From: a bacterium
Lineage (GTDB): Bacteria; Patescibacteriota; Gracilibacteria; JAHISY01
NCBI GenBank assembly: GCA_021779375.1
Contig: JAJYAT010000004.1
Location: forward strand, 34,884-98,883
Length of the DNA: 64,000 bases
Direction of reading: 5' to 3'
Of this stretch, positions 3-19,025 are shown in pieces. Both the position numbers and the translations under genes were made by a program. The stretch's first letter is position 1. Every line of letters starts with the position of its first letter. A model generated the notes under the pieces. The model did not search any database. It was not told the DNA's origin and saw only the letters and a program-made list of their open reading frames with translations.

Positions 3-404
3 AAACCGGACGAGACGATTCCAGTTTCTGGCGCGCCGCTTTTGCCCACGACACCGCTGGTCGTTTTGATTAATGAAGGTTCAGCTTCGGCTTCTGAAAT
101 TCTCGCGGGGGCGCTGCAAGACGCTGGACGCGCGAAGCTGCTCGGTGAAAAGAGTTTCGGCAAAGGCACGGTCCAGGAATTAATTTCTGATTTCGCCGAT
201 GGCAGCACGCTGCGAATTACGGTGGCGAAATGGTTCACGCCGAAAGGTCGTGCCATCGACGGCGTCGGTCTCGATCCGGACATCGTCGTCAAAATGCCGC
301 TCGAAGATTATTTCAGTGATCGCGATCCGCAGCTCGATGCCGCGGTCACCTTCCTCAAGACTGGTGAGACTCCGAAAGTTGAAAAATCTACCGAAGGAAA
401 TTAA
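3..404 (+). CDS. ctpA: S41 family C-terminal processing peptidase, 3' part (truncated by window edge)
   Basis: Motifs [46 protein letters not shown] and a C-terminal DPQL; the frame is open back to position 3. Confidence 0.93.
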
Positions 405-416
405 AATCTCGCAACT

Positions 417-463
417 GCTCGGGTGGTGAAATTCCTGCCTGCCGGCAGGCAGGGGTATACACG
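417..463 (+). pseudogene. Duplicated 5' fragment (nt 1-27) of tRNA-Leu(GAG), interrupted by a 20-bp palindrome
   Basis: 417-433 GCTCGGGTGGTGAAATT plus 454-463 GGTATACACG equal 732-758 exactly; the insert occupies 434-453. Confidence 0.9.
434..453. repeat. Perfect 20-bp palindrome CCTGCCTGCCGGCAGGCAGG
   Basis: Self reverse-complementary; a 19/20 copy lies at 18905-18924. Confidence 0.95.
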
Positions 464-479
464 AGATGCTCTAGTTAAA

Positions 480-719
480 ATGTTTTACACATATGTGATA
501 AAAAGTCGAGAAAGAAACTATATTTATGTCGGTTTAACAGGTGATCTCTTGAAAAGGGTGGGCGAACACAATCGTGGGATATCTCGAACTACAAGAAGTT
601 ATAAGCCGTTTGATTTAGTCCACTTCGAAAAATTTTCAACAAGAAACGAGGCTCGCGAAAGAGAAAAATATTTAAAGTCGGGCTGTGGTAAGGACTGGAT
701 TAAGAGTAAACTAGCTTGA
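480..719 (+). CDS. Small stand-alone GIY-YIG nuclease (UPF0213/Slx1-like)
   Basis: MFYTYVIKS...YIYVGLTGDLLKRVGEHN.G...T..YKPF.LVHFE.F..R.EA..RE..LKSG.G; ATG at 480 preferred because the upstream extension (LPAGRQG) is tRNA/palindrome-derived. Confidence 0.9.
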   Translation: MFYTYVIKSRERNYIYVGLTGDLLKRVGEHNRGISRTTRSYKPFDLVHFEKFSTRNEAREREKYLKSGCGKDWIKSKLA

Positions 720-731
720 AATCTAGAATGT

Positions 732-816
732 GCTCGGGTGGTGAAATTGGTATACACGTACGCTTGAGGTGCGTATGCCGCAAGGCGTGGAGGTTCAAGT
801 CCTCTCCCGAGCACCA
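732..816 (+). tRNA. tRNA-Leu, anticodon GAG
   Basis: Acceptor stem GCTCGGG/CCCGAGC, anticodon arm TACGC-TTGAGGT-GCGTA, long variable arm, GGTTCAAGTCC T-arm, encoded CCA. Confidence 0.97.
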
Positions 817-825
817 AAAAATCTT

Positions 826-853
826 CTCAATCAAAAGATTGAGGTTGTTTTTT
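826..853 (+). terminator. Probable intrinsic terminator after tRNA-Leu
   Basis: CTCAATC-AAAA-GATTGAG hairpin followed by GTTGTTTTTT. Confidence 0.6.
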
Positions 854-18608: not shown

Positions 18609-18683
18609 GGAAATTAAATTAAATTTTTTAAACAAATAAGCCGGTGGATTTTAAATTAGAAAACTTTTTCGAACAACCTCCGG

Positions 18684-18838
18684 TTAAGTCGTTGAGTTAT
18701 TAAGTCATTGAGTCATTGGTTACTTGGTTCGGAGGGTGATTGGTTATTGGGTTCGGGGTCAACAAGTCTTTGAGTTTTTAAGTCGTTGAGTCATTGAGTC
18801 ATTGGTCATTGGTTCGGAAGGTGATTGGTCAGTTGGCT
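18684..18838. repeat. Patchwork 7/8-mer repeats (GTCATTGA/GTCATTGG/TTCGGA) in two related blocks
   Basis: taagtcgttgagt...tcattgagtcattggt...ggttcgga.ggtgattggt occurs twice; a reverse-oriented relative lies at 25329-25410. Confidence 0.75.
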
Positions 18839-18880
18839 AATTGATGATGCTGATTTCGAAATTACAGCCAAGCAGCCGTA

Positions 18881-18939
18881 AATTCCCTCCTTTCGCAAAG
18901 GAGGCCTGCCTGCCGGTAGGCAGGGTTAGGGAGGATTTT
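18881..18939. repeat. CCCTCCTTT-CGC-AAAGGAGGG/GTTAGGGAGG REP-like hairpin interrupted by the 20-bp CCTGCC palindrome (18905-18924)
   Basis: Removing CCTGCCTGCCGGTAGGCAGG extends the hairpin stem by one pair and leaves a continuous element. Confidence 0.8.
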
Positions 18940-19025
18940 AGAAAACTAAAAATTCTTTTTCCTCAAACCAAAAATTAATTTCCAGCTTAGGTTAAGAATT
19001 CTTTCTTTGTAGTTGAGAGCTTGAT

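Follow-up and report, generated by a model that had tools for sequence, protein, structure and literature searches.

A 20-bp palindrome that inserts exactly into tRNA duplicates and is associated with a tRNA-linked clade of 79-residue GIY-YIG nucleases

The window, a stretch of 64,000 nucleotides, comes from a genome of 1.07 Mb that is 98% complete. Near its start, the gene of a small GIY-YIG nuclease lies between a 5' duplicate of tRNA-Leu(GAG) and the intact gene of the same tRNA, and the duplicate is split by a perfect palindrome (Table 1). The palindrome is identical to its own reverse complement, is flanked by GAAATT on the left and GGTATA on the right, and folds as DNA into an 8-bp stem with a CCGG loop (-8 kcal/mol). 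After removal of its 20 nt, positions 416-433 joined to 454-463 are an exact 28-nt match to positions 731-758, the 5' end of the intact tRNA, and therefore no base was duplicated or lost at the insertion. The first-pass annotation had described the palindrome between these flanks, its insertion without target duplication or loss, its distance of 26 nt from the nuclease start (ATG at 480) and a distant copy matching at 19 of 20 positions, all of which were borne out. Its placement of the insertion in a tRNA D-loop holds as to the clean insertion and is refined as to the host, which is the 5' duplicate and not the working tRNA. Rfam gave only the tRNA at this locus.

Table 1 Features of the tRNA-Leu(GAG) locus and the second palindrome copy, in window positions
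Feature	Position	Strand	Remark
Sigma70-like site, 10/12; likely native tRNA promoter	379..407	+	Consensus match only
Left part of tRNA-Leu(GAG) 5' duplicate, nt -1 to 17	416..433	+	Runs on from native leader
20-bp perfect palindrome, inserted after tRNA nt 17	434..453	.	Self-reverse-complement
Right part of tRNA-Leu(GAG) 5' duplicate, tRNA nt 18-27	454..463	+	
79-aa single-domain GIY-YIG nuclease, tRNA-Leu/Arg-linked clade, YhbQ/Slx1-like fold	480..719	+	PF01541, E 3.4e-17
Second sigma70-like site, 9/12, at end of nuclease gene	700..729	+	Consensus match only
Intact tRNA-Leu(GAG)	732..816	+	
Terminator-like hairpin 3' of tRNA	825..844	+	
Second palindrome copy, one C>T change (19/20), intergenic, downstream of dnaA-like gene, common to G008	18905..18924	.	

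The upstream promoter-like site now likely transcribes the duplicate, the palindrome and the nuclease gene, and the second one possibly serves the restored tRNA. Two palindrome matches are present in the window against 0.02 expected, and none of 100 shuffles gave two. Moreover, contigs from two public runs (X1 and X2, from one study that may be the source of the assembly) span the palindrome without differences, and no contig with the 20-mer left out was found in the public runs, all of which were compared as contigs, an outcome that carries no weight on population polymorphism.

In 75 nuclease sequences, residues Y5, Y16, G18, R26 and H30 are invariant and Y41 and E62 nearly so, and these correspond to the catalytic positions of the GIY-YIG family. 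The structure model of the nuclease (pLDDT 95.5) has its best PDB matches in UPF0213/YhbQ and Slx1. NCBIfam contains no family for the nuclease, and the protein atlas returned no result for its sequence. Translation of the palindrome as part of the nuclease was rejected, as its frame to the start codon is distributed 14/19/25 over 58 loci (p=0.21); with the palindrome frame unconstrained, translation probably does not begin at the GTG at 423.

The history of the locus can be followed in relatives. In G001, G002 and G006, the upstream protease gene and the leader are followed directly by the intact tRNA, representing empty orthologues, and the stub at 416-463 is therefore the original gene start. 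Filled and empty alleles of the Leu(GAG) locus both occur within one genus. At the level of sequence, these alleles establish that a 295-bp nuclease cassette entered tRNA-Leu, duplicated 28 nt of the host gene and restored a full tRNA downstream. The closest relative, G008, retains a cassette relic (L181:1650-1740): a deletion of about 240 bp, starting inside the palindrome, has removed the nuclease gene except for its final bases, which now directly follow the palindrome's left half. In G007 (L186:1410-1520), where the nuclease gene is no longer present, the orthologous Leu(GAG) duplicate is interrupted at the same point of its D-loop by a longer, related hairpin. A Leu(GAG) duplicate without a hairpin was not found among the 11 family genomes.

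Allowing two mismatches, the genome contains 13 copies of the element, including 3 perfect ones, 9 with one change and 1 with two. Six of the 13 are held by tRNA duplicates (Leu-GAG, Leu-TAA, Phe, Tyr, Arg and a Pro-like stub); detected tRNA duplicates account for 284 matched bases, from a search that missed three of these six, against approximately 132 kb outside long reading frames. For five copies, a paralogous tRNA gives the exact empty site. Three copies lie in frame within genes, recognised from their translations and presumably argC, a Mur ligase and ispG; the 21-nt in-frame insert of the argC-like gene is missing in all five orthologues. In genes, the insertion events that survive are those that keep the frame. 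Comparison with G008 is particularly informative. Both its orthologous Leu(TAA) duplicate, whose left flank is the same over 40 nt, and its orthologous Phe duplicate carry exact empty sites, indicating that the 20-mer arrives after the duplicate exists. The Arg site of G008 has an uninterrupted tRNA, and the Tyr, Pro-like and 18905 copies are common to both genomes. Judged from these alignments, the 20-mer is a mobile non-coding unit that inserts exactly and without target duplication. The first-pass suggestion of an ultra-short mobile unit is thus upheld by exact presence/absence at orthologous sites, and the genome-wide count and empty-site reconstruction that it recommended gave 13 copies, not two only, together with a precise orthologous polymorphism.

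Several other repeats were observed around the copies. In the presumed Mur-ligase gene (L207, G000:C12:128099, and L245-L248; named from the translation), TAGACA-type repeats and the palindrome form an in-frame patch; at this site the same copy is present in G006, a different 20-nt hairpin in G001 and none in G008. The second copy in the window adjoins the base of a different hairpin repeat (18883-18945), of which this genome and relatives have further copies. Just upstream of it is an intergenic array of short degenerate repeats of the GTCATTGA/GTCATTGG type (18680-18860), with related stretches at several G008 loci. The element can also ride on a host repeat, because a 59-nt unit including the palindrome is identical at two G008 loci. 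In addition, near tRNA-Gly(GCC) on G000:C2 (76769-76845), there are three tandem 3' tRNA stubs, each after a small CCCGC-N3-GCGGG hairpin.

The palindrome pattern was found in 12 of 41 related genomes, and a reversed control pattern in none of the 41 and nowhere in a panel of 151 genomes. A scan of one genome per species yielded at least 124 loci, including at least 42 in Bacteroidota, at least 11 in Saccharimonadota and at least 8 each in Omnitrophota, Planctomycetota and records labelled Pseudomonadota. The others are from Nitrospirota, Bdellovibrionota, Chloroflexota, Ignavibacteriota, Thermodesulfobacteriota and several other CPR groups, and 22 loci are without a phylum. Viral contigs contributed 55 loci. 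The unchanged 20-mer is present in at least nine phylum-level groups as well as in viral contigs, and the palindrome also occurs in records of named cultured strains. A variant with one change (GCCGGT/ACCGGC core) is frequent (60 of 184 copies), but the symmetric double change is rare (2 of 184; L001-L179). In one viral contig (L161), a full-length tRNA-Met(CAT)-like sequence is split by the palindrome.

No target consensus was found across 126 copies. Among their junction dinucleotides, CC/GG (42 vs 14 expected) and AT (24 vs 10 expected) exceed expectation, and TA, CG, GA/TC and CA/TG are rare. A post-hoc rule, a purine before and not A after the junction on one strand, describes 109 of the 126 against a background of 45%, and 46 of 54 viral junctions; the T|G site in the window is an exception. 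Of 115 junctions, 16 fall into a local direct repeat (vs 13 of 920 controls) and 7 into a further copy of the element. Matches to a tRNA library were found at 10 of 121 junctions vs 10 of 729 controls, 4 of the 10 only through a library entry that itself contains the element, suggesting that tRNA context is a minority of sites across phyla. The first-pass annotation had also proposed insertion into hairpin-forming sequence. Empty sites fold with a mean z of -0.98 vs -0.48 in control windows (115 sites, p=0.07), and a general hairpin-target preference was rejected, what is left of the proposal being a weak trend. Local direct repeats, tRNA duplicates and the element itself are clearer targets than hairpins.

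To describe the pairing of nuclease and palindrome, clade loci were gathered by protein pattern alone, giving 84 non-redundant loci. These are nearly always at tRNA-Leu (with any anticodon) and sometimes at tRNA-Arg, and 74 of them have the palindrome or a close variant within approximately 130 nt. The order stub-gene-tRNA is found at 58 loci (49 with the element, 3 with a looser variant and 6 without), the order tRNA-gene-stub at 15 (12 with the element), and an undefined order at 11 (10 with the element). The element follows tRNA nt 10, 14-17, 22-24, 32 or 39, and in all but about six rows the stub has the alleles of the neighbouring tRNA both before and after the element. In the 41 related genomes, the element adjoins three of four clade genes. 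It was beside none of 70 other small GIY-YIG loci, which comprise a subset of the small GIY-YIG matches in relatives and five genes of this genome. On the nuclease tree, in which columns are few and most forks weakly supported, insertion position changes 11 times vs a shuffled mean of 18.9, with none of 300 shuffles as low; part of the position sharing is therefore descent and not new insertion.

Other tRNA-linked nucleases go with other hairpins. The Ser(GGA)-, Gln-, Asn-, Pro- and Phe-linked GIY-YIG proteins each form a supported clade with its own recurring hairpin, and the group flanked by NTS-like (Ssn) hairpins is a separate clade that is not tRNA-linked. Several Arg-linked cassettes carry a different hairpin family, one cassette has the element at tRNA-Met, and most tRNA duplicates in this genome hold some hairpin. 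Most element copies are solo: a clade-profile gene occurs within 300 nt of only 5 of the 127 scan copies and 2 of the 57 viral ones, and none of 35 copies in relatives is near one (35 of 46 were taken, with the adjacent G006:C35 and G037 left out). Tandem arrays of two to four tRNA-linked GIY-YIG cassettes, amplified along with their hairpins, were seen in Bacteroidota (L445, L449, L452 and L454), and in L445 the palindrome is nested in itself. This genome has a second cassette (G000:C2:26738-27119), with tRNA-Asn and its own GIY-YIG clade, in which two other hairpins replace parts of the 5' duplicates. Two further GIY-YIG genes (G000:C12:38165 and C12:118238) are flanked by NTS/SRM-like hairpins and are probably true Ssn family members.

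The first-pass annotation had named two possible mobilisers, the adjacent nuclease and an unlinked HUH/RAYT transposase, and had suggested comparing their co-occurrence with the palindrome. This was done in the 151-genome panel, drawn from the family of G041 (clade gene at E<=1e-24; Y1_Tnp at E<=1e-6), in which one-copy counts include the copy beside the clade gene and p-values overstate because kin genomes are not independent. The element is present in 19 of 26 genomes with a clade gene vs 18 of 125 without (OR 16), and at three or more copies in 7 of 26 vs 6 of 125. For Y1_Tnp, the corresponding counts are 20 of 55 vs 17 of 96 (OR 2.7). Among genomes without Y1_Tnp, the element is found in 10 of 13 with a clade gene vs 7 of 83 without; among those with a clade gene, Y1_Tnp adds nothing (9 of 13 with it vs 10 of 13 without). 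Other small GIY-YIG genes also co-occur with the element (11 of 35 vs 7 of 90 genomes, OR 5.4), and if only genomes with some small GIY-YIG gene are compared, those with a clade gene do not reach three copies significantly more often (7 of 26 vs 5 of 35, p=0.33), suggesting that part of the signal may be a general selfish-DNA load.

Copy numbers reach 31, in G045. Among the nine panel genomes with at least five copies, no clade gene was found in G144 (18 copies) and G079 (8), and only truncated or broken ones in G041. The 16-copy and 12-copy genomes have a clade gene and no Y1_Tnp match; at E<=1e-6, Y1_Tnp matches are absent from G110 (16 copies), G124 (12), G079 (8) and G050 (5), and there are none in G006 (8 copies, 97% complete) or G018. 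This genome does contain Y1_Tnp matches, with no exact element copy within several kb of them. A Y1_Tnp-like domain at G000:C3:19594 is part of a 1236-aa open frame, and similar long fusions exist in several relatives. Overall, co-occurrence favours the nuclease clade over HUH transposases.

We tentatively read the 20-mer, with a confidence just short of even, as a mobile hairpin that enters spare DNA exactly and is likely mobilised by the tRNA-Leu-homing mini GIY-YIG family. The mobility is visible in the orthologous alleles; that the adjacent nuclease is the mobiliser we infer from its association with the element, namely the cassette pairing and the odds ratio of 16, and to this extent the first-pass proposal gains support. 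Like Ssn nucleases acting on their repeats, the nuclease would recognise the hairpin when the DNA is single-stranded, and like Slx1-type enzymes it would cut stem/single-strand junctions, both cutting free the 20-mer and opening tRNA-like or slipped-repeat targets. GIY-YIG enzymes hydrolyse DNA and cannot rejoin it, so host steps must be assumed: repair and ligation by the host would join the freed 20-mer into the opened target. Insertions in a working tRNA would be lethal and purged by selection, leaving only those that hit the duplicate, another repeat or, with the frame kept, a protein loop that tolerates them.

The mobiliser could instead be unlinked or host machinery that inserts the 20-mer widely, with selection retaining it in cassettes where it breaks a deletion-prone direct repeat or damps nuclease expression driven by the strong tRNA promoter. 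This is less likely than the first reading, with the following in its favour: insertion occurs after the duplicate exists, and also where no clade gene is linked, in the duplicates of Phe, Tyr, Pro and Leu(TAA); most copies are solo; G144 and G079 have many copies with no clade gene found; most tRNA duplicates in the genome carry some hairpin; and a target-sequence preference for Leu D-loops could mimic the clade pairing. However, a direct repeat could be broken by any hairpin, but in genomes with several hairpin types every nuclease clade stays with its own. Damping of expression is at odds with the element in 12 of 15 tRNA-upstream cassettes, where it is mostly downstream of the gene and cannot block translation, and stabilisation, which the first-pass annotation had put forward as a possible effect, with the G008 cassette, which decayed despite its palindrome. 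An unlinked HUH (Y1) transposase of the RAYT/TnpA-REP type, excising and inserting the hairpin as single-stranded DNA, is improbable. Precise insertion without target duplication agrees with HUH chemistry as given in the accessible part of PMC6006769, and Y1_Tnp matches are present in the genome and co-occur weakly with the element (OR 2.7). Nevertheless, there is no conserved guide or target tetranucleotide beside the hairpin, the six genomes listed above carry copies with no Y1_Tnp match, and Y1_Tnp makes no difference among genomes with a clade gene, so that this part of the first-pass proposal is disfavoured.

Still less probable is that the palindrome is a fixed cassette end that moves only with its cassette, the solo copies being relics or passengers of other repeats. 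The insertion position tracks the nuclease tree, tandem arrays copy the palindrome with the unit (L445) and the 59-nt host repeat of G008 contains it at two loci, all as a fixed end would predict. But host-specific tRNA sequence lies on both sides of the palindrome, in-frame copies sit in housekeeping genes, and the exact 20-nt empty sites at gene-less loci in G008 largely refute it. Given so short an element and a genome assembled from a metagenome, a chance match or assembly artefact might be considered, but it has a negligible likelihood and is refuted by the 0.02 matches expected in the window, the matchless reversed control, the cultured strains and the bridging contigs. Returning to mobilisation by the nuclease, a broader and more tentative possibility, which we hold a little less probable than the reading for the Leu-linked family itself, is a code of three-part selfish systems that crosses phyla: each clade of approximately 80-aa GIY-YIG proteins would home to one tRNA type and mobilise its own hairpin of 15-25 bp. 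On this view, few known transposable units would be shorter than the Leu/Arg 20-mer, which would need no transposase but a hydrolytic nuclease and host ligation, and which would add inserts of six to seven residues to essential proteins.

An exactly inserting unit of 20 bp that is identical across phyla lies far below the size that the accessible text of PMC10969869 gives for prokaryotic MITEs, and it bears on the still-open question of how REP-like hairpins spread. If true, the pairing of clade, tRNA and hairpin would carry the Ssn concept over to a second branch of GIY-YIG proteins, which could then supply many small ssDNA nucleases specific for hairpins. The question of how the hairpin spreads can be tested directly, since the candidate enzyme has 79 aa, the substrate is a single oligonucleotide and cultured Bacteroidota contain both. 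In addition, the palindrome accounts for LPAGRQ/PACRQAG insertions and for wrongly extended N-termini among annotated proteins (20 of 120 homologues).

No published description of the sequence, its peptides or the architecture was found in a search of main texts that covered few subscription journals. Free-standing GIY-YIG genes tied to tRNA genes have a parallel in SegB, reportedly a homing endonuclease in the tRNA cluster of phage T4 and a larger phage protein; the gene in the window is chromosomal, encodes 79 aa, has duplicated part of its tRNA and comes with a cognate hairpin. Homing endonucleases of the Seg type cut the empty allele and spread through gene conversion. Among the close systems are also the Ssn nucleases (cd10448), single-domain GIY-YIG proteins that bind and cut ssDNA next to their own hairpins (PMC11893778, accessible text). 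There, too, a single-domain GIY-YIG protein of less than 100 aa goes with a short hairpin dispersed genome-wide, and different nuclease clades with different hairpins; the window nuclease, at 79 aa with PF01541 only, shares the size and domain feature. It nevertheless falls outside the SRM-flanked clade, as judged indirectly from tree and profile scores: proteins flanked by NTS-like hairpins branch off as a clade of their own (SH-aLRT 98), and the profile of the tRNA-Leu/Arg-linked clade gives them 33-50 bits vs 130 for the window nuclease. Furthermore, the 20-mer is a bare palindrome without an oriented 5' tag (CGTCA-type flank), with only a one-base bias over 126 copies, and stands on one side only, inside a tRNA duplicate. 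In the accessible text of PMC11893778, movement of the repeats by Ssn is not shown and tRNA targeting is not mentioned.

REP/REPIN-RAYT/TnpA-REP systems likewise comprise palindromes of 20-40 bp in many copies, some in genes, for which spread in trans by one small enzyme has been proposed (PMC3733652 and PMC6006769, as far as accessible). The 20-mer falls in that size range and has several copies (13 here), but it differs in the lack of a GTAG or CGTC tag at the hairpin foot, of a REPtron and of a flanking HUH gene, in its linkage to GIY-YIG instead of HUH, and in its low copy number (1-31) and identity across phyla. Rickettsia palindromic elements and prokaryotic MITEs are also non-autonomous palindromes found in frame in unrelated genes; according to the accessible text of PMC10969869, the former are approximately 150 bp and the latter 50-500 bp with target duplications. 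The in-frame insertion is shared, whereas the 20-mer crosses phyla and the former are Rickettsia-specific, and unlike MITEs, with terminal inverted repeats around an internal part, it is all stem and makes no target duplication. Non-autonomous IS200/IS605 derivatives have a conserved target tetranucleotide and subterminal hairpins (PMC6006769, accessible part), neither of which is found in the 20-mer. Finally, the GC clusters of yeast mitochondria are short GC-rich palindromic mobile DNA with presence/absence polymorphism, for which endonucleases acting in trans have been proposed; in the accessible text of PMC4478555 they differ from the 20-mer in being organellar, longer (GC42) and accompanied by a putative target duplication.
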